Positions 41,734-54,016 of a stretch of DNA of 64,000 nt are shown here, in pieces (position 1 is the first letter of the stretch; every line of letters begins with the position of its first letter). A program made the translations under genes and the position numbers. The notes beneath the pieces were generated by a model that had not been told where the DNA came from, did no database searches, and saw only the letters and a program-made list of their open reading frames with translations. This DNA is from an uncultured Muribaculaceae bacterium (GTDB lineage Bacteria > Bacillota_I > Bacilli_A > RF39 > UBA660): the NCBI GenBank assembly GCA_964407685.1, contig CAYOWI010000001.1:34169-98168 (forward strand), read 5' to 3'.

Positions 41734-43116
41734 ATGAAAAAGGAAAAAAATGTTTTATCTAGTATGTTTATGTATTTAACAATAATTGTTTTTAGCGTTA
41801 TATCACTGTTATTTTTGGTAAAAAATAATATTATATTATCAGTTTTAGCATTTATTATAGTTACGTTTATTTCTTTAAAAGTAGATATAAAAAAGTTTCC
41901 CATTATATTATTTATAACTAGTTTAGTAATTAGGTTAGTAATGATACTTTTATTTAATTTTCCTCAAGTATCTGATTTTGAAACTTTACTTAATGCCTCT
42001 AACAGTTTTACTAAGGGTGATTTTTCCTTTCAAAATGACGCCTATTTTAGTATGTGGGGATATCAAACTGGTTTTGTAATCTATCAGGGTATAATCTTGA
42101 AATTATTTAATAGCACTTTTGTTCTTAAATTATTAAATGCTATCTTTTCTTCAGGATTGTGCGTACTTATATACGTATTTGGTAAGAAACAAGTTTCTGA
42201 AAAAAGTGCTAAAATGGCTTCATTATTATATATGATTTTTCCTTTCTCACTATATTTAAACACGGTTTTAGCAAATCATCATCTATCTACATTTCTTATG
42301 TATATAGGAATATTTTTCCTACTTAAAAAAGATAAAAAAACAAAGGATTATGTATTAGCGGGGGTATTAATTAGCTTTGGAAACATAATAAGGCCAGAAG
42401 GTATAATAGTTGTTACAACATTTATTATATTTGAACTATTAAACTTAAAAAAAGATAGAGTTAAAATGGTATTAAAAAACATATCGGTATTTTTAGTCAT
42501 TTATTTCCTTGTTGGTACGTTTTCTTCATTTTTGGTTACTAAAACAGGAATAAATGAGCAAGGTTTAAAAAATAATAATCCAAAGTGGAAGTTTGTTTTA
42601 GGATTTAATCATGATTCATGTGGTTATTATGATGCATCTGATGAAAAATATTTAAATGATGAAGAAAAAGAAATAGAAGTTATAAAAGAAAGAGTGTTAG
42701 TTAACCCAATAAAAATGGGAAAACTAATGACTTGTAAAGTTAATAAGTTTTGGCTTCAAACTTCTTTATCTTCAAAGAACAAAATGTATACTGATAAAAC
42801 TTATCACATACTTGGCTTTGATATAAAGTTTACTGATATAGAAAACATTGTTGTTTCATTCAATACTATTCTTTATATAATTACTTTATTTATGTGTATG
42901 ATAGGGGTAATATTTAATCGAAAGAAGATAATTAAAGATAATTCATTTTTCTTCGTTATTATGATGATGGTTACCTTTGGTGTTTACTTACTTATTGAAA
43001 TACAACCTAGGTATGCATACTTTATTCATGTTAGTATATTTATATTATCAGCATATGGATATGACTTTGTATTAGATAAAATTAAAAATGTATTTAAAAA
43101 GAAATTAAAAAGATAA
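41734..43116 (+). CDS. GT-C-fold membrane glycosyltransferase (ArnT/PMT-like)
   Basis: About 11 TM helices with a periplasmic loop. Resembles 4-amino-arabinose/mannosyl transferases. Confidence 0.5.
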   Translation: MKKEKNVLSSMFMYLTIIVFSVISLLFLVKNNIILSVLAFIIVTFISLKVDIKKFPIILFITSLVIRLVMILLFNFPQVSDFETLLNASNSFTKGDFSFQNDAYFSMWGYQTGFVIYQGIILKLFNSTFVLKLLNAIFSSGLCVLIYVFGKKQVSEKSAKMASLLYMIFPFSLYLNTVLANHHLSTFLMYIGIFFLLKKDKKTKDYVLAGVLISFGNIIRPEGIIVVTTFIIFELLNLKKDRVKMVLKNISVFLVIYFLVGTFSSFLVTKTGINEQGLKNNNPKWKFVLGFNHDSCGYYDASDEKYLNDEEKEIEVIKERVLVNPIKMGKLMTCKVNKFWLQTSLSSKNKMYTDKTYHILGFDIKFTDIENIVVSFNTILYIITLFMCMIGVIFNRKKIIKDNSFFFVIMMMVTFGVYLLIEIQPRYAYFIHVSIFILSAYGYDFVLDKIKNVFKKKLKR

Positions 43117-43128
43117 GGAAGTGTTAAA

Positions 43129-44394
43129 ATGATAAAAAAAATTAATGTTTTTTTAGAGAAAAAGACTTTAACACTTTTTTATCTTTTTCTTTTTATACAA
43201 CCTATATTAGACTTACTTATATCCCTTTTTAATCATTATAATATATCATCTAGTATGGTTTTAGTTATTAGAACTTTGTTTTTAGGATACTTTTTATACT
43301 ACCTATTATTTATAAGAAAATGTAGTATAAAATACGTAATTGCATTATTTATTTATGCTGCTATCTTTATTTTAATAAACCTATTTAGTGGCGGAATAAG
43401 CGAGATATCATATGAGATAAAGTCGCTAATTAAAGTAATATATTTTCCTATAACACTTTTATTTGTTATGGAATTATTTAAAGATAATGATATTAAAAAG
43501 AAGTATTTATACATTATTTTACTTATTTACTTGTTACTTATTTTTGTGCCTGATATTTTAAATGTTGGTTTTGAAAGTTATTTGTATGATAAAGTAGGGA
43601 GTATTGGCCTTTTTTACTCTGCTAATGCAGTAGGCAACATAATAAGTATGCTTGCGCCACTTTTTATTTTCTACTTGTTAAAAAACGAAAAAATAATAAG
43701 TTTAATCTTATTTTTAGGCTTATATTTTTACGTACTTTTAATGATGGGTACTAAAGCACCTTTTTTAACTGCTATGATAATTGTTTTATATTTAATTATT
43801 TTACTTATAATTAAGCTTATTAAAGAAAAAAAATATAAGTGTATACTTATATTTGTAATTGCTTTTATACTAGGTGTAGGTATCATGATTAAAATATTTC
43901 CTGAAACATCATTTTATAAAAATTTAATCATCCATGCTAAAAACATGGGTGTTGAAAGTTTAAATGATATGTTAAATTTTAAAAAACTAGATGATTATAT
44001 TTTTAGTGGTAGACTCTCATTTCTTAAAGATTCTTTAAATATATTTATTAATAGGCCATTAGTGCAAAAATTATTTGGTATGGGATACATAGTAGGTGGA
44101 AAAGTTATAAAGACATCTGAAATGGATTACTTTGTTATGTTACTTCATCAAGGAATATTAGGATTTATTATTTTATATTATAAATATTTTAACAAAATAG
44201 CATGTATTTTTAAAAAATACGTAGAAAAATTTAAATCTAATTTTCTTAATTTAGAAAAAAGCGGTGTTTTAATAGCACTTATTATTTCCATATTAAATGC
44301 TTTATTGGTCGGACACGTACTTGATGTTCCATCAGTATCAATTTTTGTATCTATGATTATTGTTATAGCGTGTAAACAGTTAAAGGATATATAA
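43129..44394 (+). CDS. Second Wzy/O-antigen-ligase-like polytopic membrane protein
   Basis: About 10-12 TM helices. No soluble domain. Confidence 0.45.
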   Translation: MIKKINVFLEKKTLTLFYLFLFIQPILDLLISLFNHYNISSSMVLVIRTLFLGYFLYYLLFIRKCSIKYVIALFIYAAIFILINLFSGGISEISYEIKSLIKVIYFPITLLFVMELFKDNDIKKKYLYIILLIYLLLIFVPDILNVGFESYLYDKVGSIGLFYSANAVGNIISMLAPLFIFYLLKNEKIISLILFLGLYFYVLLMMGTKAPFLTAMIIVLYLIILLIIKLIKEKKYKCILIFVIAFILGVGIMIKIFPETSFYKNLIIHAKNMGVESLNDMLNFKKLDDYIFSGRLSFLKDSLNIFINRPLVQKLFGMGYIVGGKVIKTSEMDYFVMLLHQGILGFIILYYKYFNKIACIFKKYVEKFKSNFLNLEKSGVLIALIISILNALLVGHVLDVPSVSIFVSMIIVIACKQLKDI

Positions 44395-44409
44395 GGAGTA
44401 TTAAAGTGT

Positions 44410-46632
44410 ATGAAAAGATTAAAGAAGATATTAAAAAGTAATGCTTTTAAAGCTTTTTTCTTATCATTTTTATTAGGAACCATAATTATTTTACCTAATA
44501 TAATTAAAGGAAATGGAATATATAGCTTAATAGCAGACTTTAATGTTCAACAAATACCATTTAATAAAATAATAAATGAGTCCATAAAAGAAGGATCTAT
44601 TTTATGGTCTTGGTATAATGAACTAGGTAATAGTTTTATAGGTTCTTTTAGTTTTTATAATTTATTTAGTCCATTTAATATTATTGGTTATTTATTTCCG
44701 GCATCATGGTTTGAATATTTAATAGGTCCAATATTTATTTTAAAATATGCTGTGGCTGGTTTAACTTCTTATTTATTTTTAAAAAGATATGTTAAAAATA
44801 AGAATTATGCAATATTAGGCTCATTATTATATTCATTTTCAGGTTTTCAATTAACGAATATGATGTTTTATCATTTTCATGATGTAGTAGCGTTGTTTCC
44901 ACTTATTTTATATGCGCTTGATAAACTTGTATATGAAAATAAAAGATTCTTATTTTCTTTTACGGTATTCTTACTTGCCATAACAAACTTTTTCTTCTTT
45001 ATTGGTATAACCTTTTTTGTATGTTTATATTATATCGTAAAGATTATTTGTAAAAGTTACGAATTTAACTTAAAGACATTTTTTATAATTTTGTTTGAAT
45101 CTATTTTAGGAGTAGGTGTTGCAGGGATAGTACTTATGCCATCTATATTATTTACGATGACTAATCCAAGGGTTAGTTCTAATTGGACATTAGTTACAAG
45201 TTTAAGACATGCTACTAATAACTATTTAGAAATATTAAGAGGAGCACTTTTTCCTCCTGAAATAATGAGTTATAGAGCGATTATTACGGAGCATAATTAT
45301 CAAAGTATAGAACTTTATTTACCATTTGTAGGACTCATTTTAGGGACTGCTTACTTTTTAAAAAATCCAAAAAAGTGGGATAGTATTTTTATGCTATTAC
45401 TTGTTATAATAATGATTTTCCCAATTTTAAATAGTATGTTTTTTGCATTTACAATAACTTATTATGCTAGATGGTTTTATATGGCAATATTGATATTTTC
45501 ACTTACCTCTATAAAATGTTTAGAAGAAAATATAAAGTTTAAAAAAGCTATAATAATAAATGTTATTTTAGTATTGATATTTATAATTGGATGTTTTGTT
45601 TATACTAAGTTATTTAAAGAAGAACAGTTTTTCTATGATAAAAGCTATTTAATAACAATGGTGATATCCTACTTTATAAGTATTATTTCATTATTGATAA
45701 TAGATGGTTTTAAAAGTAGTGATAGAAAGTTAAAGATAATATATATCATGGTAATTATATGGGTATGTTTTTGGGGTAATTATGTAACTTATAAGTACAA
45801 AATGGCATCAGGTGTAAGTAATGCTGATTATAGGGAATACTTAAGTATAAGTCAAAAGGTTAATTTAGATAAAATAACTAGATTTAATAGTTCTCTAAGT
45901 TGTAATTATAACTTAGGCTTACTAACTAAAAACGGTGATATTAAGGCATTTAATTCTAATATTAGTGGGTCATTGTTTAAGTTTTATAGAAGTATTGGTT
46001 ATGATAGGGGAGTGTCAACAAATTTAGGCATAGATGATAAAAAGCTAAATGATTTTTTAGGAGCGGAATATATTTTGTCTTGTGGTAGCGATGATATTAG
46101 TTATTTAAACTATGAATTAAAAAAAGATTATGGTACGTTTAAACTATACTATAACGATAACTATAAAAAACAGGGATTTGCTGTGGATAAATATATATTA
46201 GATGAAGATTTTGATAAGTTAAATTATGACGAAAAAATAAATGTATTAAATAATAGTGTTGTGTTAAGTAAAAATCAAATAAATGAATATAAAAATTTAT
46301 TTAATAAAGAAACTATATATGACGAGTATGAATTTAGCTATGTAAATAATGGTATGAAATCTAAAATAGTTTCTAATAAAGAAGCACTTGCTATATATAC
46401 CGTTGCTTATGATAAAGGCTGGAGGGCTTACGTAAATGGTGAAAAGATAAAAATAGAAGAAGTAGATAATGGTTTTATGGCTATAAAAATAAATGAAGGA
46501 GAAAATAATATAGAATTTAAATATTTTCCTTCCGGACTACTTTTAGGTTTTATAATTTCGGGCATTTCATTGTTAATATTTATAATTTATGTTATTTTAT
46601 ATATGAAGGAAAGTAGGTGTAAGTGTGAATAA
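44410..46632 (+). CDS. YfhO-family membrane protein (glycosylates teichoic acids using C55-P-sugar donors)
   Basis: Long polytopic protein with a C-terminal extracellular domain and YfhO-like N-terminal region. Followed by a GtrB/CsbB-like gene. Confidence 0.75.
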   Translation: MKRLKKILKSNAFKAFFLSFLLGTIIILPNIIKGNGIYSLIADFNVQQIPFNKIINESIKEGSILWSWYNELGNSFIGSFSFYNLFSPFNIIGYLFPASWFEYLIGPIFILKYAVAGLTSYLFLKRYVKNKNYAILGSLLYSFSGFQLTNMMFYHFHDVVALFPLILYALDKLVYENKRFLFSFTVFLLAITNFFFFIGITFFVCLYYIVKIICKSYEFNLKTFFIILFESILGVGVAGIVLMPSILFTMTNPRVSSNWTLVTSLRHATNNYLEILRGALFPPEIMSYRAIITEHNYQSIELYLPFVGLILGTAYFLKNPKKWDSIFMLLLVIIMIFPILNSMFFAFTITYYARWFYMAILIFSLTSIKCLEENIKFKKAIIINVILVLIFIIGCFVYTKLFKEEQFFYDKSYLITMVISYFISIISLLIIDGFKSSDRKLKIIYIMVIIWVCFWGNYVTYKYKMASGVSNADYREYLSISQKVNLDKITRFNSSLSCNYNLGLLTKNGDIKAFNSNISGSLFKFYRSIGYDRGVSTNLGIDDKKLNDFLGAEYILSCGSDDISYLNYELKKDYGTFKLYYNDNYKKQGFAVDKYILDEDFDKLNYDEKINVLNNSVVLSKNQINEYKNLFNKETIYDEYEFSYVNNGMKSKIVSNKEALAIYTVAYDKGWRAYVNGEKIKIEEVDNGFMAIKINEGENNIEFKYFPSGLLLGFIISGISLLIFIIYVILYMKESRCKCE

Positions 46633-47584
46633 AACATTATACGTAGTCGTGCCATGTTATAACGAAGAAGAAGTATTAGAAGAAACAACAAAAAGATTAA
46701 AAGAAAAATTAAGTAAACTAATAAATGATAAAAAAATATCAAATAAAAGTAAGGTAATGTATGTAAATGACGGTTCAAAGGATAATACTTGGGAACTAAT
46801 AAAGAAAATAAATAAAAAAGAAAAGCTATTTACAGGAATAACTCTATCAAGAAATAGAGGACACCAAAATGCGTTATTAGCAGGTCTTATGACTGCTAAG
46901 ACTTACGCTGATGTAGTAATAAGTATGGATGCAGACTTGCAAGACGATATAAACGCTATAGATGAAATGATAGATAAATATAACGCAGGATGTGATATTG
47001 TTTATGGAGTTAGATCCTCAAGAAAAAAAGATACTTGGTTTAAAAAGACTACCGCACAAGGATTTTATAAGTTTATGAAGTTAATGGGAGTAGATGTAGT
47101 ATATAATCATGCGGATTATAGATTAACAAGTAAAAGAGTGTTAGATGAGTTTGAAAACTTCAAAGAAGTAAACTTATTCTTAAGAGGAATGTTTCCTTTG
47201 GTAGGTTATACGTCAGATGTTGTATATTATGAAAGAAATGAGAGATTTGCAGGGGAGTCAAAGTATCCATTAAAGAAAATGCTTAACTTTGCATGGGATG
47301 GAATAACATCATTTAGCGTAAGACCAATAAGAATGGTATTAAATGTAGGAATAATAATATTTGCGATAAGTTTATTAGTATTATTATATTGCTTAATAGT
47401 TAAATTACTGGGAAAAACAGTTGAGGGCTGGACCTTTATAGTAGGATCAATATGGTTAGTTTCAGGAGTACAAATGTTATCAATTGGAATAATTGGTGAA
47501 TACATAGGAAAGATATATAGTGAAACAAAAGCAAGACCTAGATTTATTATTTCTGAAAACTTAGAGGAACTAAAAAGGGATTAG
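46625..47584 (+). CDS. GtrB/CsbB-like GT2 (undecaprenyl-phosphate sugar synthase) with two C-terminal TM helices
   Basis: VVPCYNEE...YVNDGSKDNT, DADLQDD and two C-terminal TM helices. Confidence 0.8.
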   Translation: MNKTLYVVVPCYNEEEVLEETTKRLKEKLSKLINDKKISNKSKVMYVNDGSKDNTWELIKKINKKEKLFTGITLSRNRGHQNALLAGLMTAKTYADVVISMDADLQDDINAIDEMIDKYNAGCDIVYGVRSSRKKDTWFKKTTAQGFYKFMKLMGVDVVYNHADYRLTSKRVLDEFENFKEVNLFLRGMFPLVGYTSDVVYYERNERFAGESKYPLKKMLNFAWDGITSFSVRPIRMVLNVGIIIFAISLLVLLYCLIVKLLGKTVEGWTFIVGSIWLVSGVQMLSIGIIGEYIGKIYSETKARPRFIISENLEELKRD

Positions 47585-47594
47585 ATAAAATTAT

Positions 47595-48149
47595 TTATTT
47601 ATCTAATCCCTTTTCTTTATTAAATTTATCCCATATATAGTTTATCACTGATTCATGATTTGGATATAATCCGTCTTCATTAATTATTTTTCTATTATTT
47701 ACGTATTGGTTAAAAGTACTAATTATTTTGGCAGGATTACCTCCTACAACACTATTATCAGGAACATCTTTAGTTACTATAGAACCCGCTGCAATAATAA
47801 CGTTATTTCCAATTTTAACGTTTGGCAATATAGTTACGTTACATCCGATAAATACATTATTTCCAATCTTTATTGGTGCACAGTTATAATAAAATTTAAA
47901 ATCATAGTTCATTTTATTTAATACTTTATCAATTACATCATGTGTTACAAAGGTAACTCCAGATGCCACAACAACGTTATTTCCAAAACTAATTAATTTA
48001 GGTTCATCTGGTATTATCCTTGGTTGAAAAAAGAAGTTTTCACCTACATGTTTAAATATATTATTTTTAATTAGTATTTTAGTCCTTTTATTAGCGTTTG
48101 GTATTAAATACATTTTAAGTTTTGTACTATATTTCATGTTGTCCTCCAA
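47595..48149 (-). CDS. Maltose/galactoside O-acetyltransferase-like hexapeptide-repeat acetyltransferase
   Basis: [46 protein letters not shown]. Confidence 0.75.
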
Positions 48150-48313
48150 TATATTAATATTATAACATTTGTTTGATAAAAAATCATTTAATATGTTATT
48201 TTTTGTTTTTTTTAAGTGATTTCAAAAGATATGTAGAATAATAAAAATGAGAGAACCTAATAATGGGTAGTTACTTTCCATCTTTTTTAAAAGAATAAAA
48301 GGGTGGTGATATT

Positions 48314-48394
48314 ATGAAAAGGGAGAATAAGTTTCTTAAAGTAATAATCTTTCTTTTGATTTTAATAATAATCATACTAATATTTAAAATATAA
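48314..48394 (+). CDS. 26-aa hydrophobic peptide MKRENKFLKVIIFLLILIIIILIFKI (copy 1): candidate type I toxin-like or small membrane peptide
   Basis: Ribosome-binding site at 7-nt spacing. Charged N-terminus plus a single TM segment. Terminator immediately downstream. Confidence 0.4.
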   Translation: MKRENKFLKVIIFLLILIIIILIFKI

Positions 48395-48648
48395 AAGAAA
48401 AAGTACAACTACCCAAAGGGGGTATTGTACTTTTTCCTATTTTACAAATAGGAAAGTAACTAACCTTAAGTTAGGTTCTTTCACTAACTAAATTATACAA
48501 AAATATTTATTTTATGTAAATAAAAAGTTTAAATATTATATTTTTTTAAAGTGATTTTAAAAGATATGTAGAATAATAAAAATGAGAGAACCTAATAATG
48601 GGTAGTTACTTTCCATCTTTTTTAAAAGAATAAAAGGGTGGTGATATT

Positions 48649-48729
48649 ATGAAAAGGGAGAATAAGTTTCTTAAAGTAATAATCTTTCTTTTGATTTTAA
48701 TAATAATCATACTAATATTTAAAATATAA
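48649..48729 (+). CDS. 26-aa hydrophobic peptide (copy 2, identical peptide)
   Basis: Same as copy 1. Confidence 0.4.
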   Translation: MKRENKFLKVIIFLLILIIIILIFKI

Positions 48730-48864
48730 AAGAAAAAGTACAACTACCCAAAGGGGTTATTGTACTTTTTCCTATTTTGCAAATAGGAAAGCAACTAACC
48801 TTAAGTTAGGTTCTTTCATTAATTAAATTATACAAAAAATAAACTAATATGTAAATAATTACAA

Positions 48865-50490
48865 CTAATGTTTGTAAAATCCTTTTCCTATTTGTGTACT
48901 TTGGTATGGATTGTTTATTGAAAATGAAAATTCTTTGTCCATCTCTGGTTTTTTTAATTCCAAGTTTATTTTCATTGCATCAGTTATTTCTTTTAAACTT
49001 TCCTTATAATATTCGAAATAATAAATATTATTTATGTAATTATCATATCCTGATAGGTATAACCTTTGCGTTCCTATGAAATCATCATTATGGATGTTTT
49101 TTGAGTTAAAGATTATGTTTTTAAAAGTATCAAATCCTGTTATCATGGTATCTTTTTCAATGTTAGTATCAATGTTATCTCCGACTATATCTAATATGTC
49201 ATATATTTGAGATAAACTCTTAATACTTTTTAGTTTGTTCATAATTGCATTTACTATTTGTTGTTGATTTTGTCCCCTTATAAAATCATTACTATTATAA
49301 TTAGAGTATTTTTTTCCACAGTATGCTGGCCATGGATGACGATTTCTTGCGAAGGCTAAGGTTTGTTCACCATTTAAAGTCTGCATGCCTTTTTCTAAAT
49401 ATATAGTGTTATTACCAAATCTTCTTTTTGAATCACTTTCACAAAAAGCATATGGTATGTCAACTTCTATTCCACCTAGGGCGTTTACTAGTGATATTAC
49501 ACCTTGAAAGTTTATTTTAGCCCAATAATCAATTTCTATTCCGGTAAAATTAGTTATTGTATCCATTACGCAATCAGCACCATATAATGCAGCGGAATTT
49601 ATCTTATTTTTTGATTTGTTTTTGGTGCAAACAATTGGAACCCTGGTATCCCTTGGAATGCTAAGAATAGTAGCATTCATGGTGTTAGGATTAAAGGTAA
49701 TTAGCATTAACGTGTCACCGTTAAATGAGTTGCTTTTTGATAGGGAACTAGAACTTGAATCAACTCCCATAAGAAGAATAGTAAAAGGCTTATCTAAAGT
49801 TTTACCATTTTCAGTTTTTTTATTTGTGGTCTTCTTGCTTTTTTCTAAGATAACTTTTGTTTCACTGGCGATATTTTCAAAACCTTCTTCGTTTGCGAAT
49901 AAAGATACGTAAGAAGAACTAACAAACATTGCGTCTATTTTATTATTATATAAATCAGTTAACATTTCATTATAATTATCATAAGTTGCTAAATTTTCTT
50001 TATTAATGTTTTTTTCTTTTACCATTTCCATGGCAATGGTATAACCTTCTATGTTTGCTTTATCATTAATTATTCCTATTTTACCTTTTTGCAAGTTAGA
50101 AGCCAAGTTAAATGGTGATTCCTTTAAAACTATTAAACTAGTTGAATAGCCAGTTTCACTCTTGGTTATTTTTGATAGTGAATTACTTATTTTATTAATG
50201 TTAATTGAGATAAATAACTCTAACGTGATAAAAATAGCGATAATAATAAAATACCAAACGTAGCTTTTTGTCTTATTTTTTTTGATACATCTAAGACCAG
50301 TATAAGTAAATAAAACTAAAAGCAATGCCGTTAAAATAATTATTCCGTAAACTACGTAGGTCATAAAGCTCTTTGATGAATTATAATAATATATTTCATT
50401 TGTGAAATAAGCGCTTGAAGCGTAGTAAGCTATCAAAAATAAAAATACAAAAATAGACGCTTTCTTAAATTTCTTTTTTTTATTTTCCAA
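48865..50490 (-). CDS. LCP (LytR-CpsA-Psr) family protein, second copy
   Basis: N-terminal TM helices, then LCP core ILLMGVDSS...GDTLMLITFNPNTMNATILSIPRDT...AKINFQGVISLVNALGGIEVD. Confidence 0.8.
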   Translation of the reverse strand: MENKKKKFKKASIFVFLFLIAYYASSAYFTNEIYYYNSSKSFMTYVVYGIIILTALLLVLFTYTGLRCIKKNKTKSYVWYFIIIAIFITLELFISININKISNSLSKITKSETGYSTSLIVLKESPFNLASNLQKGKIGIINDKANIEGYTIAMEMVKEKNINKENLATYDNYNEMLTDLYNNKIDAMFVSSSYVSLFANEEGFENIASETKVILEKSKKTTNKKTENGKTLDKPFTILLMGVDSSSSSLSKSNSFNGDTLMLITFNPNTMNATILSIPRDTRVPIVCTKNKSKNKINSAALYGADCVMDTITNFTGIEIDYWAKINFQGVISLVNALGGIEVDIPYAFCESDSKRRFGNNTIYLEKGMQTLNGEQTLAFARNRHPWPAYCGKKYSNYNSNDFIRGQNQQQIVNAIMNKLKSIKSLSQIYDILDIVGDNIDTNIEKDTMITGFDTFKNIIFNSKNIHNDDFIGTQRLYLSGYDNYINNIYYFEYYKESLKEITDAMKINLELKKPEMDKEFSFSINNPYQSTQIGKGFYKH

Positions 50491-50710: not shown

Positions 50711-52486
50711 ATGAAGATATTTAGTAATAAAAAGAATCTATTACTTACTTTTACGATAGTTTTCTCATGCTTTATGATGTTACCAAAACTAAATGCTGCC
50801 TCATATGACGTATATACTGTAAAAAGCTCTATGGGTAAAAAGGATTGCCCGATAAGAACAGGTCCAGGAACTAATAAAGAAATTATTAAAAATGGAAATG
50901 ATAACGTTTATGTCTATGCGAATCAACAATTAGAATATATTAAAACAATGACAGGTCCAAATGGTGGTAAAAATGCCAATTGGTACGCGGTTAAATTTGA
51001 TTATGCTGCAAGGGAATATACTGGATATGTAGTAGAGGCTTGCGTTAATAAGACTACTTATTCGTATAATGATGATGATTCATTTGAGCAAAGTATAAAA
51101 GACTTTCCGGATAGTTATAAGCCGTATTTAAGGAAACTTCATGCTATTCATCCTAATTGGTCTTTTTCGATAGATAACACTAATCTTGATTGGAATGATT
51201 CGGTGACCGCAGAAAGCAGAATTAATCAAAGTGCTATTTCGCATCTTTATCCATCTTTGTTTTATAAAGATGAACAAAACCCTAATGGTATAGTAGTGGA
51301 TGGTACTAGTTGGTATGCCCCTTGTTATGATGCCGTGGGTTATTATTTAGATCCAAGAAATTTTTTAAATGAAAAGAATATATTTATGTTTGAAAGCTTA
51401 TTATATAATCCAGCACAAGATAATTCTGTACAAGGAATATTAAATGGCAGCTTCATGGCTAAAACATTTACGGAAAATGGTTATGATAAGACTTATTCTG
51501 AGGCTTTTATAGAAGCCGCTAAGGAGTCGGGCGTAAGTTCTACACACTTAGCATCACGTGCATTACAAGAAATGGGTGTAACAATGTCATCGGCAGCAAG
51601 CGGAACCGTTCCAGGTTATGAAGGATATTATAACTTTTATAACATTGGTGCATACTCTGGAGTAAACAATTATATAAACGGATTAGAATATGCAAAAAAA
51701 GAAGGATGGAATAGTATTCAAAAGGCAATAACCGGTGGGGCTAAGTTCATAAGCGATAAGTATGTTAACAATGGAAAAGATACTTTATATTTTCAAAAGT
51801 TTAACGTATCTTCAGATAGAAAAACCGCACCTTATACATACGAATATATGACTAACATAATGGCTCCATCATCTGAATCAGCAAGTATATATAATTCTTA
51901 TAAGAACAATGGAAAACTAAATGATGCTTACGCTTTTAAAATCCCAGTTTATAATAATATGACTGCTAACGCATATAAAGTGTCCAGAACGGATACCGTA
52001 GGGGGAAAAGAAGAGGATAATGGCGGTAATACCGAAAATAAACCAACTGAGCCAGAAACTCCAAAAGTAAGTGTTGAAACTAAAATCTCTAACGCTGGTT
52101 ATTTACTTTTGGACGGTTATTTAACAAAAATTAATATTGGTGAAGACATGAGTTTATTAAGACAAAAGTTAACTAATCAAGGGGCTTTAGTTGCAAGTTT
52201 AAATAGTTCATGGAATTCTAAAACGTCTGGTAAGGTTGCAACCGGAGATATAATAGAAGTAGATAAAACAAAAAGATATGAAGTAGTTGTTTATGGTGAT
52301 ATAGATGGTGATGCGGATGTATCAGTTGTAGATTTATTATATTTAAAAAAATATATATTAGGTGATATGAATTTAAATTCTGCTAATAAAAAAGCGGCAG
52401 ACATATCAAAAGATGGAAAAGTAGATGTTGTTGATCTATTACTATTAAAAAAACATATTTTAGGTGAGTATACCATTATTCAATAG
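50711..52486 (+). CDS. Secreted SH3b + GH73-like N-acetylglucosaminidase with C-terminal type I dockerin
   Basis: Signal peptide. SH3b-like segment (...NWYAVKFDY...GYVVEACV). Glucosaminidase-like GYYNFYNIGAY. Dockerin duplicated Ca-binding segments DIDGDADVSVVDLLYLKKYILG and DISKDGKVDVVDLLLLKKHILG. Confidence 0.6.
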   Translation: MKIFSNKKNLLLTFTIVFSCFMMLPKLNAASYDVYTVKSSMGKKDCPIRTGPGTNKEIIKNGNDNVYVYANQQLEYIKTMTGPNGGKNANWYAVKFDYAAREYTGYVVEACVNKTTYSYNDDDSFEQSIKDFPDSYKPYLRKLHAIHPNWSFSIDNTNLDWNDSVTAESRINQSAISHLYPSLFYKDEQNPNGIVVDGTSWYAPCYDAVGYYLDPRNFLNEKNIFMFESLLYNPAQDNSVQGILNGSFMAKTFTENGYDKTYSEAFIEAAKESGVSSTHLASRALQEMGVTMSSAASGTVPGYEGYYNFYNIGAYSGVNNYINGLEYAKKEGWNSIQKAITGGAKFISDKYVNNGKDTLYFQKFNVSSDRKTAPYTYEYMTNIMAPSSESASIYNSYKNNGKLNDAYAFKIPVYNNMTANAYKVSRTDTVGGKEEDNGGNTENKPTEPETPKVSVETKISNAGYLLLDGYLTKINIGEDMSLLRQKLTNQGALVASLNSSWNSKTSGKVATGDIIEVDKTKRYEVVVYGDIDGDADVSVVDLLYLKKYILGDMNLNSANKKAADISKDGKVDVVDLLLLKKHILGEYTIIQ

Positions 52487-52495
52487 GAGGATGAA

Positions 52496-54016
52496 ATGAA
52501 GAATAAAACTAAAAAAATATTAGTAGGAGCATTAGTTCTCTTTCTTGCTTTTATTATAAAACTGCCAAGTACTTTTGCAGCATGTAGCATTAGTGTATCA
52601 TCTACTAGTAACGTAGTGGTTGGAAATACTTTTAAAGTAACTACCACGGTTTCATCTGACGTTGGTTCTTGGTATTATGTGCTTGGTTATGATCCTTCAA
52701 AGGTACAACTTATAAGAGGCAACGTAAAAGTAGTTGGTGTAATAGGAGATAGTAAAACTAATACATATACTTTTAAGGCTTTAAAATCGGGAGTAGCTAC
52801 GTTTAGTACCACTAACGTATCACTTGCAAGTAACAGCACTAACGCTCAGTGCTCACCTAGTACTGGCAAGGCATCGGTTACGATGAAAACACAGGCTGAA
52901 ATAGAAGCTAGTTATAGTAAAAACAATAATTTAAGTTCACTTTCGGTAGAAGGAGCAGAGCTTTCACCGGCTTTTAATAAAGATGTTACCGAGTATTCTG
53001 CTAGCTTACCAGTTGATACTACAAAAGCTAAAGTGCTTGCAACAGCCGAAGATAAAACAGCTTCGATTTCGGGTGCTGGTGAAATAGATGTTGTAGATGG
53101 TATAAATAAGTTAGAAGTTACCGTTACCGCTCAACATGGAGAAAAAAAGACCTATGTAATAAATTTAACGGTTGAAGAACTTGACCCGATATCCGTAACA
53201 GTTAATAATAAGAAGTACACCATAGTAAGAAAGCCTGGGCAGATAGAAAATATTCCGGTTGGGTTTGTTGAAAGTAAGATAAATATACAAAATCAAGAGA
53301 TAACGGTATATAAAAGCGAAGTTACAAAATTAACGTTAGTAGCACTAAAGGATGAAGAAGGAAACATTGGTTTATTTATTTATAATCCATCAAATAAAAC
53401 GTTTAAAGAGTTTAAAGAAGTTAAAGCAAGTTCTGCAAACTTAATAGTGTTAAATGAAAAAAATGTTGATGTTCCAGATGACTTTGAAAGAACTACTTTT
53501 GATTATAATGAAATAAAAATAGAAGGATATAAGTTTAAAAAGGATAATGAAAATAGATACTTCTTAGTTTATGCTCAAAATCTTGAGAACGGAACAACTG
53601 GTTTTTACTTATATGATAGTAGGGAAGGTACTTTTCAAAAGTATTATAATAACATTGTTAATTTTAAAAATAATGCCATAAAAACAAGAGAATATATAAT
53701 AATTGGTTTTATAGTACTATTCGTATTTATGATGTTAATTAAGTTATTAAAATTATTTTCCTCAAAAGAGGCTAAAATAAGAAAATATGAAAATAAAATT
53801 AAAAAATTAAAAAATGAAACTTCAAAAGAAGATTATTATGACATTGATGAAGTATTAGTAAAGGAAGAACCAGTAATAAAAAAAGTCGAAGACGACGAAT
53901 ATGTTGTTCCTAAAAAAACAAGAAAACAGAAAATAAAGGAAATAGAAGAAGCTAAGAAAAAGCTTGATAAGACAAAACCGGCTTTTAGAAGAGTATCTTT
54001 AGAAGATGATGAGTAG
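52496..54016 (+). CDS. Membrane-anchored surface protein: signal peptide, cohesin-like N-domain, cadherin-like beta-sandwich, TM, K/E-rich cytoplasmic tail
   Basis: Cohesin-like pattern (VVVGNTFKVTTTVSS...YVLGYDPSKVQLIRG...YTFKALKSGVATFS). Cadherin-like beta-sandwich (LSSLSVEGAELSPAFNKDVTEYSASLPV...). TM IIIGFIVLFVFMMLIKLL. Confidence 0.45.
   Translation: MKNKTKKILVGALVLFLAFIIKLPSTFAACSISVSSTSNVVVGNTFKVTTTVSSDVGSWYYVLGYDPSKVQLIRGNVKVVGVIGDSKTNTYTFKALKSGVATFSTTNVSLASNSTNAQCSPSTGKASVTMKTQAEIEASYSKNNNLSSLSVEGAELSPAFNKDVTEYSASLPVDTTKAKVLATAEDKTASISGAGEIDVVDGINKLEVTVTAQHGEKKTYVINLTVEELDPISVTVNNKKYTIVRKPGQIENIPVGFVESKINIQNQEITVYKSEVTKLTLVALKDEEGNIGLFIYNPSNKTFKEFKEVKASSANLIVLNEKNVDVPDDFERTTFDYNEIKIEGYKFKKDNENRYFLVYAQNLENGTTGFYLYDSREGTFQKYYNNIVNFKNNAIKTREYIIIGFIVLFVFMMLIKLLKLFSSKEAKIRKYENKIKKLKNETSKEDYYDIDEVLVKEEPVIKKVEDDEYVVPKKTRKQKIKEIEEAKKKLDKTKPAFRRVSLEDDE

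Follow-up and report, generated by a model that had tools for sequence, protein, structure and literature searches.

A tandemly duplicated small-peptide cassette resembling a type I toxin-antitoxin module at the edge of a wall-glycopolymer locus

The 64,000-nucleotide stretch of DNA that was analysed (the window) carries a tandemly duplicated cassette of about 335 bp, each unit of which, judging from its sequence, probably forms a self-sufficient pair of genes of the type I toxin-antitoxin class, representing a sporadically distributed new family that is built like the par system yet stands outside it. The sequence anatomy of the cassette, its conservation and covariation, and its patchy distribution were established directly. 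We collected relatives via the neighbouring LCP gene and compared three cassette types, i.e., those of the window and of the related loci L002 and L008. The known set thus amounts to three cassette types at one genomic site, which keeps the covariation counts low. Where MAFFT aligned window-type with L008-type units, the register was lost in places, and the covariation table obtained from that alignment was left unused.

Tandem Repeats Finder reported a single array at 48206-48838 with a period of 335, 1.9 copies, 97% matches and no indels. A repeat search with pairwise alignment gave the two units, and comparison with cassette-free relatives delimited the inserted segment between the promoter of the hexapeptide-transferase gene and the stop codon of the LCP gene.

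48171-48864, no strand assigned: whole inserted segment with two units
48198-48532: unit 1
48533-48867: unit 2
47595-48149, minus strand: hexapeptide acyltransferase gene
48865-50490, minus strand: LCP gene

The surrounding locus is a wall-glycopolymer locus, encoding YfhO, a GT2 glycosyltransferase, an O-antigen-ligase-like protein, LCP and the acyltransferase. Each 335-bp unit encodes a 26-aa peptide behind a strong ribosome-binding site and also contains a terminator and inverted arms of 31/32 nt, and the long-range complementarity within a unit is far above that of dinucleotide shuffles (z = -5.9, 0/300). An earlier sequence-only reading had already described these elements, the tandem duplication of about 335 bp and the flanking acyltransferase and LCP genes on either side; all of these were borne out, with 1.9 copies at 97% identity across 48198-48867. 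The same reading also took the duplication as an exact and recent amplification, of which the duplication stands but the exactness does not. Whereas 48224-48421 are identical to the corresponding part of unit 2, five differences lie in 48422-48488, and the spacer at 48504-48531 has diverged. All unit 1/unit 2 differences in the core fall within the antisense-RNA half of the unit. Tandem copies in both lineages share this pattern, having identical mRNA halves and diverged terminator and antisense halves, which would fit the specificity of cognate pairs. We consider it unlikely that the duplication is an assembly artefact, as the earlier reading had allowed for, because a related MAG has an independent two-unit array at the same site and because the short-read contigs from seven other samples break at the repeat edge, 34-72 nt beyond the LCP stop codon.

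The plus strand of each unit contains the peptide gene with its predicted promoter, a hairpin over the ribosome-binding site and the small ORF.

48211-48239, plus strand: predicted peptide-mRNA promoter of unit 1 (TTTAAG-17-TAGAAT, read from the sequence)
48546-48574, plus strand: predicted peptide-mRNA promoter of unit 2 (TTTAAA-18-TAGAAT, 9/12, listed as 48545-48574)
48278-48306, plus strand: hairpin sequestering the ribosome-binding site in unit 1, in which CCAUCUUUUU pairs with AAAAGGGUGG
48613-48641, plus strand: hairpin sequestering the ribosome-binding site in unit 2, identical to unit 1
48314-48394, plus strand: small ORF 1 of 26 aa, MKRENKFLKVIIFLLILIIIILIFKI (ORF translation)
48649-48729, plus strand: small ORF 2, same 26-aa peptide (ORF translation)

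The promoter of the peptide mRNA is the weaker of the two predicted for each unit, and L002 has TTGAGT-16-TATAAT (10/12) at the equivalent position. A canonical extended -10, as proposed earlier, could not be recognised: in TGTAGAAT the TG abuts the -10 hexamer without forming TGn, and the promoter scan marks the TG as absent. The ribosome-binding site AAAGGGTGGTGAT is located 7 nt 5' of the ATG. Its hairpin is predicted for each of the three cassette types, with energies between -8.8 and -9.2 kcal/mol; it is weaker on the opposite strand, and shows a compensatory deletion of one pair in L002 (CCAC/GGUGG).

The small ORF is the sole conserved reading frame of the cassette, and the homologous units in relatives do keep it as a coding sequence. 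Between the window and L002, it differs by five synonymous and three conservative codon changes (3/0/6 by codon position), and an in-frame indel of 3 nt distinguishes the two ORFs of L008. A 45-aa ORF on the antisense strand was rejected as a gene, as it is not kept in L008. The peptides comprise 26-29 residues, including a hydrophobic run of 15-17 residues and one predicted transmembrane helix; the L008 peptide differs in sequence (MKIKFEIKFPSKLIIILLLIIVLVIMYV). Their charges are N-terminal, they end in ...LIFKI, ...LIFEI and ...VIMYV, and a charged C-terminal region is absent from the peptides of the cassette types compared. The predicted distance from the stop codon to the terminator stem is only 0-2 nt. 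In none of the related loci (e.g., L008) does the small ORF have a gene call; its 81 nt are below the usual minimum lengths of gene callers. The resemblance to type I toxins that had been noted earlier thus extends to the self-contained unit, the charged head with one transmembrane helix, the conserved ORF and the hidden ribosome-binding site, but not to the charged C-terminal tail, which is listed as typical of such toxins (PMC6563280).

The second half of each unit holds a bidirectional terminator and, on the minus strand, a predicted antisense RNA with its own promoter.

48397-48436, both strands: intrinsic terminator of unit 1, bidirectional, with U-tracts in either orientation (-20.9 kcal/mol)
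48732-48771, both strands: bidirectional terminator of unit 2, with a single base of the loop region changed relative to unit 1
48492-48520, minus strand: predicted antisense-RNA promoter of unit 1 (TTTACA-17-TATAAT, 11/12)
48827-48855, minus strand: predicted antisense-RNA promoter of unit 2 (TTTACA-17-TATAAT, 11/12), 10 nt past the LCP stop codon
48388-48485, minus strand: predicted antisense small RNA of unit 1, about 95 nt (fold -33 kcal/mol, z = -4.95; 51 perfect base pairs predicted with the mRNA of this unit)
48433-48455, minus strand: hairpin 2 of the predicted antisense RNA of unit 1 (inverted repeat and fold)
48768-48790, minus strand: hairpin 2 of unit 2, one loop base different from unit 1 (A/G), inverted-repeat pair I7

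The minus-strand promoter, which does not appear in the sequence-only reading, is the best promoter match of the region and the top match in all three cassette types. Its position is kept in L002 (TTTACA-17-TATAAT) and L008 (TTGATA-18-TATAAT), in every case 6-9 nt ahead of the arm. In L008, the terminator stems of the two units show covariation, and the loop of hairpin 2 is variable, being flipped between strains of the L002 species. When the predicted antisense RNA was cofolded with the mRNA, a single intermolecular helix of 44-51 perfect base pairs formed at the mRNA 3' end, with a gain of -30 to -41 kcal/mol. The predicted overlap is confined to the shared terminator, stop codon included. 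Complementarity outside this overlap was not above shuffled controls (p = 0.04-0.13) and not conserved in position; a block of the translation start of the par type is therefore not evident.

As the minus-strand promoter faces the hexapeptide-transferase gene and a terminator follows about 90 nt downstream of the promoter, the minus-strand RNA could also be imagined as a terminator-bearing leader (attenuator) of that gene, the small ORF being incidental. However, the transferase keeps its own promoter TGTTATAAT beside its ribosome-binding site in cassette-free and cassette-bearing genomes alike, an alternative antiterminator pairing was not seen, and the ORF, ribosome-binding site and overlying hairpin on the plus strand are conserved, which leaves the attenuator with hardly any likelihood.

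Both predicted RNAs begin close to one of the inverted arms, the left (L) and the right (R).

48249-48279, plus strand: left arm (L) of unit 1, inverted counterpart of R
48451-48482, minus strand: right arm (R) of unit 1 (motif match and fold)
48584-48614, plus strand: left arm of unit 2, identical to unit 1
48786-48817, minus strand: right arm of unit 2, with one substitution relative to unit 1 that creates an A.C mismatch with L

The arm motif had no matches in 100 shuffles of the window. L and R match only over their outer 12 + 12 bp, whereas the central 7-8 nt are mismatched and the most divergent. Each arm is a quasi-palindrome that folds on its own best in the sense of its own promoter, as seen for L with -5.4 to -9.8 kcal/mol in the plus sense and -0.3 to -4.4 kcal/mol in the minus sense. 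By this modelling, the peptide mRNA would open with L as a stem-loop, which starts 0-4 nt from the predicted start site (about 4 nt after it in unit 1), and the antisense RNA would likewise open with R, taken in the minus-strand sense. Because the arms are inverted in the DNA and the promoters converge, the two predicted RNAs start with the same sequence and not with complementary ones. The earlier suggestion that the arms could encode a complementary antisense RNA did not hold up as worded; the predicted antisense RNA comes from the separate minus-strand promoter. Between the window and L002, L and R carry parallel substitutions (C>T and A>G) that keep the pairs.

Imperfect 31/32-bp inverted repeats around a short segment, with promoters just outside, in a cell-surface polysaccharide locus would also be expected of an invertible DNA switch, in which the arms are recombination sites and a 171-bp flip puts the ORF behind the stronger promoter; the quasi-palindromic nature of each arm points the same way. 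We regard such a switch as very improbable. At the level of assemblies, all nine independent units from eight assemblies, namely the two of the window, those of L002-L006 and the two of L008, have one and the same orientation, and the arm centre, where a crossover needs identity, is the most divergent part. Inversion would not gate transcription because the terminator is symmetric. Moreover, the strand-specific pattern of G.U pairs described below points to RNA, and no recombinase was found among the ten neighbouring proteins scanned.

In the type I toxin-antitoxin-like module that we favour, the transcription of both RNAs, their pairing and any toxicity of the peptide are inferred. The weaker plus-strand promoter would produce an mRNA of about 195 nt with the L stem-loop at its 5' end and the ribosome-binding site held in a local hairpin; it would encode the 26-residue peptide with its charged head and single transmembrane helix, and its putative intrinsic terminator begins 2 nt past the stop codon. 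The near-consensus promoter on the minus strand would give an RNA of about 95 nt, consisting of the R stem-loop (the mirror of L), the second hairpin and the shared bidirectional terminator. Over 44-51 nt, which take in the stop codon and the terminator, the RNAs would match each other as perfect complements, because the same bidirectional terminator ends both. Contact between the terminator loops could then proceed to a long duplex of mRNA and antisense RNA, leading either to double-strand-specific cleavage of the mRNA or to an mRNA that is held closed and untranslated. Peptide synthesis would presumably take place only once the antisense RNA declines, and the 5' stem-loops may shield both RNAs from 5' decay. 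The parallel evolution of L and R counts against the type I reading, as the model alone does not explain it. The missing charged C-terminal tail, the shortness of the overlap, the lack of significant complementarity beyond it and the small number of cassette types, all from one site, weigh against this reading as well.

One variant of the type I model would account for these substitutions by pairing L with R in a read-through plus-strand RNA, where a 5'-3' helix of about 28 bp locks the mRNA in a hok-like fold-back and the antisense RNA, a perfect complement of R, competes with L for R. The L-R duplex amounts to -30 to -38 kcal/mol and is 5-8 kcal/mol stronger on the plus than on the minus strand, because the non-Watson-Crick pairs are G.U on the plus strand, and the read-through plus-strand RNA folds 13-24 kcal/mol better than the minus-strand RNA. 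The parallel C>T and A>G changes preserve the pairs, and a ribosome terminating at the stop codon, 0-2 nt from the terminator stem, could suppress termination. Nevertheless, we find this variant rather unlikely: R lies downstream of a good plus-strand terminator, with no second terminator after R; the arms also form hairpins singly, most stably in the orientation transcribed from the respective promoter, which would account for the G.U bias of L; and in unit 2 the L-R helix carries a tolerated A.C mismatch. A more speculative extension, which we hold to be doubtful to a somewhat greater degree, makes the mirror design itself the mechanism. The antisense RNA would mimic the mRNA leader; a ribosome at the stop codon would suppress the terminator, the mRNA would extend into R and the 5'-3' helix of about 28 bp would lock, while the small RNA, as the complement of R, would compete with the leader for R and for any factor binding the shared 5' stem-loop. 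Such a translation-coupled lock-and-decoy circuit is undescribed for type I systems.

The toxin mRNAs of hok/sok and aapA1/IsoA1 are locked by a 5'-3' fold-back. Similarly, L and R of the cassette could form a long 5'-3' helix that encloses the ORF and renders the message inert; unlike in these systems, the 3' partner lies beyond the terminator and the antisense RNA overlaps the 3' and not the 5' end. Among enterobacterial type I toxins, ShoB and Ibs have 19-26 residues with a polar head, are hydrophobic up to the C-terminus and have no charged tail. The cassette peptide is alike in length and in the polar-head/hydrophobic layout, but it belongs to another host phylum, has no sequence similarity and is combined with another antisense geometry. 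Ibs/Sib loci are also often tandemly duplicated, with cognate-specific antisense RNAs.

A close parallel in layout is the par system (Fst/RNA I-RNA II of Enterococcus faecalis pAD1; Fst/Ldr family), in which convergent promoters share a bidirectional terminator, a 5' stem-loop covers the ribosome-binding site and the 5' end is sequestered by a helix (PMC7472228). Like par, the cassette has convergent promoters, a shared bidirectional intrinsic terminator with complementary terminator stem-loops, and a stem-loop over the Shine-Dalgarno sequence of the mRNA. The L hairpin, close to a start site that is itself predicted, may correspond to the par helix that sequesters the extreme 5' end. The sizes are also par-like: the hydrophobic peptide has about 30 residues, the mRNA some 200 nt, and the antisense RNA is short. 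In par, however, the direct repeats DRa/DRb give the two RNAs complementary 5' regions, by which the start site is blocked, whereas the cassette repeats are inverted and the 5' regions are same-sense. In contrast to Fst, the peptide has no PXXXG, carries its charges at the N-terminus and not in a C-terminal tail, and shows no Pfam/Rfam similarity.

The 3'-overlap systems of Bacillus subtilis have overlaps of about 75-120 nt or more, beside which that of the cassette is short. In these systems (txpA/RatA, bsrG/SR4, bsrE/SR5 and yonT/SR6; PMC5848175, PMC6563280), as predicted for the cassette, the overlap of toxin mRNA and antisense RNA is at the 3' end of the message, and the expected outcome is likewise duplex-dependent mRNA degradation by RNase III. 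The cassette differs in that only the terminator (44-51 nt) overlaps, and there is no sequence relationship. Moreover, the Bacillus toxins have 28-60 residues, charged C-termini and a mostly prophage location, whereas the cassette resides in a wall-polysaccharide locus.

Among the relatives, the cassette is present at LCP identities of 96%, 84% and 79% and absent at 82%, 80%, 77%, 72% and 62%. The relative with 84% LCP identity has one unit, and L008, at 79%, has two units of very different sequence in the same layout. Cassette-free gaps span 40-57 bp (117 bp in L020) and hold just the LCP terminator hairpin, and in a relative with 75% LCP identity a Holin_LLH gene takes the place of the cassette. 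LCP-based scans recovered four loci in genomes and 23 in metagenomes, with no new cassettes among them. The module is an accessory element that borders a variable locus for cell-wall glycopolymer, and it is duplicated in two lineages.

Such a position leads to another explanation, in which the same anatomy serves a benign small membrane protein, e.g., a modulator of the adjacent cell-envelope enzymes, tuned by a cis-antisense RNA and not a toxin. The location within the wall-glycopolymer locus, the lack of the charged C-terminal tail that type I toxins usually have, and the presence of another small membrane protein (Holin_LLH) at the same site in a relative all speak for it. On the other hand, the cassette is dispensable for the locus, because close relatives with the same flanking genes lack it. 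Furthermore, the hidden ribosome-binding site, the strong antisense and weak sense promoters, the tandem duplication and the patchy spread make up the usual signature of type I modules (compare PMC7472228 and PMC6563280). On balance, we consider a benign peptide a less probable, though realistic, explanation than the type I toxin-antitoxin-like module.

Inverted repeats, patchy distribution and tandem duplication are also what one would find in a MITE with the arms as terminal repeats, and spread of this kind had been suggested from the sequence. Yet the arms are internal, as both promoters lie outside them but still within the insert 48171-48864, and neither a target-site duplication nor flanking direct repeats were found at the insert borders. 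The cassette was found at a single genomic site, and our searches returned no extra copies elsewhere in the 64-kb window, in 49 related loci, in viral contigs or in an exact 20-mer scan of metagenomes. The MITE is already largely refuted, and we give it next to no probability.

In the wider databases neither the peptides nor the RNAs matched a known family, which counts against the type I reading. The peptides gave only noise in Pfam at E <= 10 and no PADLOC family, and the Rfam toxin/antitoxin RNA families gave no match at E <= 10. Chance matches in Rfam to terminator-like models (plastid 3'UTR, SurA) were far under the gathering scores and were dismissed, as were three short AT-rich chance matches from BLAST of one unit against phages; BLAST of one unit against plasmids gave no match. 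Neither did tblastn of the peptides against plasmids and phages, possibly owing to the low-complexity filter. Exact look-ups of the LCP translation of the window, of P0001 and of the antisense 45-aa ORF returned no record. The exact 20-mer of the terminator had 0 matches in the metagenome and viral collections, and the family-wide gapped pattern had 0 in viral contigs and, among the loci, found the known cassettes only.

Almost no type I toxin-antitoxin families are known from uncultured Firmicutes of the human gut, and the cassette, if confirmed, would be a new one. Annotation misses it, as its ORF goes uncalled and it has no family in Pfam, PADLOC or Rfam. Judging from this anatomy, a layout of the par type can come about when the leader is duplicated in inverted instead of direct orientation. 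The cassette would offer a compact natural system for asking what role identical 5' stem-loops play on a sense/antisense pair, and it is also suited to asking how tandem cassette copies keep their cognate specificity. Finally, the boundary position and the interchange with a holin-family gene hint that such modules may mark or stabilise recombination hot spots in surface-polysaccharide loci.

Tandem Repeats Finder detected a single array at 48206-48838 with a period of 335, 1.9 copies, and 97% matches, and its two units (48198-48532 and 48533-48867) align without gaps. The tandem duplication of about 335 bp proposed in the sequence-only reading thus holds, but the copies are not exact: the units show no difference in 48224-48421, comprising the promoter-proximal leader and the ORF, five differences in 48422-48488, and then a diverged spacer. 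Each unit contains the ORF, ribosome-binding site, terminator, and imperfect inverted repeats described by that reading; its extended -10 (TGTAGAAT) is not canonical according to the promoter scan. The within-unit long-range complementarity is well above that of dinucleotide shuffles (z = -5.9), and the arm motif never occurs in shuffled window sequence. When non-coding DNA was scanned for short hydrophobic ORFs preceded by a ribosome-binding site, only these cassettes emerged in the 64-kb window. The element is real, well-organised, and unannotated.

Features of the two units
48314-48394 and 48649-48729, plus strand: small ORF of 26 codons, MKRENKFLKVIIFLLILIIIILIFKI (ORF reading)
One per unit, plus strand: ribosome-binding site AAAGGGTGGTGAT, ATG 7 nt downstream
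48397-48436 and 48732-48771, both strands: strong hairpin with a U-tract on both strands (terminator)
48249-48279 (left arm, L) and 48451-48482 (right arm, R), second pair 335 nt further on: imperfect inverted arms
48520..48492 and 48855..48827, minus strand: promoter of the predicted antisense RNA, TTTACA-17-TATAAT, 11/12 (promoter scan)
48455..48433, minus strand: hairpin 2 of the predicted antisense RNA

The best promoter match of the region, overlooked in the sequence-only reading, is the minus-strand TTTACA-17-TATAAT, which is directed into the cassette. Its predicted start lies 2-3 nt ahead of R, from where the predicted transcript would proceed through R and hairpin 2 and stop at the ORF transcript's own terminator hairpin. 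Because a U-tract follows this hairpin in both directions, the two predicted RNAs would end at one hairpin. The plus-strand promoter is weaker (TTTAAG/TTTAAA-17/18-TAGAAT). The strong minus promoter, the weaker plus promoter, and the two-way terminator therefore suggest convergent transcription units sharing a bidirectional terminator. The predicted antisense RNA of ~95 nt folds at -33 kcal/mol, far better than shuffles (z = -4.95). Its perfect complementarity to the predicted mRNA would span 44-51 nt and take in the stop codon, with a predicted energy gain of -30 to -41 kcal/mol.

Since the DNA carries the arms in inverted orientation between converging promoters, the two predicted RNAs would begin with nearly equal stretches of ~31 nt. 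The earlier suggestion that the arms encode a complementary antisense RNA is not supported, as the 5' ends of both RNAs would be same-sense and not complementary there. Each arm is a quasi-palindrome that folds most stably when read from its own promoter (L: plus strand -5 to -10 kcal/mol, minus strand -0.3 to -4; R transcript: minus strand -6 to -10 kcal/mol, plus strand -3 to -8). These modeled, strand-biased folds fit a 5'-terminal stem-loop on each predicted RNA. A helix of ~28 bp between L and R could form as well (-30 to -38 kcal/mol); its non-Watson-Crick pairs are G·U on the plus strand, which makes it 5-8 kcal/mol stronger there. This helix would require read-through, since R lies past the plus-strand terminator. 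Between the window and L002, a related locus with the same cassette type, two parallel substitutions each affect both arms. They could reflect two homologous protective hairpins being kept alike, a 5'-3' lock in a read-through mRNA, or gene conversion. Base pairing of the enterococcal par type, between the 5' part of the antisense RNA and the start region of the mRNA, was unsupported (p = 0.04-0.13, position not conserved).

We fetched homologous sites via relatives of the LCP protein, of which many are on record; the source assemblies are MAGs from human and other guts and carry the labels "uncultured Clostridium sp." or "Bacilli bacterium".

The site between LCP and the acyltransferase gene in related assemblies (L002-L037), with LCP identity to the window
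LCP 84% (L002-L006, L012): one unit, same cassette type as the window
LCP 79% (L008): two tandem 391-bp units, 90% alike; sequence very different from the window, layout equal
LCP 82% (L016-L019), 77% (L007), 72% (L011 and L023-L037), 62% (L013): cassette absent; 40-57 bp with the LCP terminator hairpin
LCP 80% (L020): cassette absent; gap of 117 bp
LCP 75% (L021, L022): 103-aa Holin_LLH gene, oriented like the small ORF

From this presence and absence, the cassette is an accessory insert, occupying 48171-48864 in the window. Two-unit arrays occur in two lineages (window and L008), which disfavours an assembly artefact; contigs of seven further samples break off 34-72 nt past the LCP stop, the behaviour that a repeat would cause. 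L008 retains the part order of the window, namely promoter, arm, ribosome-binding-site hairpin, ORF, bidirectional terminator, hairpin, arm, and strong opposing promoter, with an ORF of 28/29 aa (MKIKFEIKFPSKLIIILLLIIVLVIMYV). Just outside its left arm lies a promoter-like TAGACA-18-TAAAAT (10/12; L008:5917-5946 and L008:6308-6337, plus strand), which faces outward in the direction of the acyltransferase gene. The LCP terminator hairpin marks the end of the Holin_LLH gene (PF09682, E = 7e-16; L021:4642-4953 and L022:4642-4953, minus strand). In cassette-free genomes (L007:5600-5650, L016:4600-4640), the LCP stop codon lies inside a 12-bp-stem hairpin, AAAAGGAACTTA-N7-TAAGTTCCTTTT. Its left half is missing in cassette-bearing genomes (window 48865-48890), so LCP lacks its own terminator ahead of the cassette.

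Between the window and L002, the nine differing positions in the 81-nt ORF comprise five synonymous and three conservative codon changes, with codon position 2 unchanged throughout, and a single in-frame indel of 3 nt separates the ORFs of the L008 units. The ribosome-binding-site hairpin is found in all three cassette types (-8.8 to -9.2 kcal/mol; much weaker on the other strand), and in L002 it has lost one base per stem side (CCAUC/GGGUGG to CCAC/GGUGG). Two compensatory pairs in the terminator stem distinguish the L008 units, and the antisense promoter reaches 11/12 in every type, always positioned 6-9 nt ahead of the arm. In the tandem units of both lineages, leader and ORF are identical and the antisense-RNA half (terminator, hairpin 2, R) has diverged. 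The hairpin 2 loop is flipped among strains of one species (CCTATTGGTTAATAGG vs CCTATTAACCAATAGG; L002:5700-5715 vs L003-L006; window 48437-48452), a small hairpin-loop inversion polymorphism. The opposite strand holds a 45-aa ORF that is not retained in L008 and was rejected as a gene for that reason.

Further cassette copies were found neither in the window nor in 49 related loci, viral contigs, or an exact-20-mer metagenome scan. The MITE-like spread considered earlier was rejected on this search, with the arms internal to the insert and no target-site duplication. An invertible switch was likewise discarded, given a single orientation in 9/9 units and an arm centre that is the most divergent part, as was a leader of the transferase gene, whose own promoter is present whether or not the cassette is.

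Beyond the acyltransferase (window 41734-47584; L007, L016, L017, L020), close relatives vary in their genes: a GT2 glycosyltransferase plus YfhO in some, an O-antigen-ligase-like gene of variable orientation in others. This puts the cassette at the border of a variable cell-wall glycopolymer locus. The acyltransferase and LCP (47595-50490) are the only minus-strand ORFs of at least 120 aa in the 64-kb window, and the small ORFs lie on its majority strand. Two proteins encoded next to LCP are conserved in all relatives, one of 591 aa with a type I dockerin domain at its C-terminus (50711-52486) and one of 506 aa with a cadherin-like domain (52496-54016).

Taken together, we lean towards a module resembling type I toxin-antitoxin systems. 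Its mRNA, self-closed and weakly transcribed, would yield the membrane peptide, and a strongly transcribed antisense RNA would pair with the mRNA 3' end via the common terminator; the duplex would be cut by a double-strand-specific RNase or kept as an inactive complex. The main rival, which we consider rather improbable, leaves this anatomy unchanged and takes the peptide for a small, harmless membrane protein. Its polar head and the hydrophobic stretch reaching the C-terminus make the peptide reminiscent of ShoB and Ibs. The overlap is much shorter than in Bacillus 3'-overlap systems. The mode of action expected for the toxin-antitoxin-like module resembles that of these systems (PMC5848175; PMC6563280). 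Among known systems, enterococcal par (Fst/RNA II) comes nearest in layout, combining convergent promoters with a common bidirectional terminator, a ribosome-binding-site stem-loop, and a 5'-end-sequestering helix (PMC7472228). Three differences place the cassette outside the par family: its repeats are inverted where those of par are direct, its peptide has neither the Fst motif nor a charged C-terminal tail, and it has no similarity to Pfam or Rfam families. Its unusual feature is that both predicted RNAs would carry the same 5' module, and the cassette most likely represents a new family of a kind of system already known.
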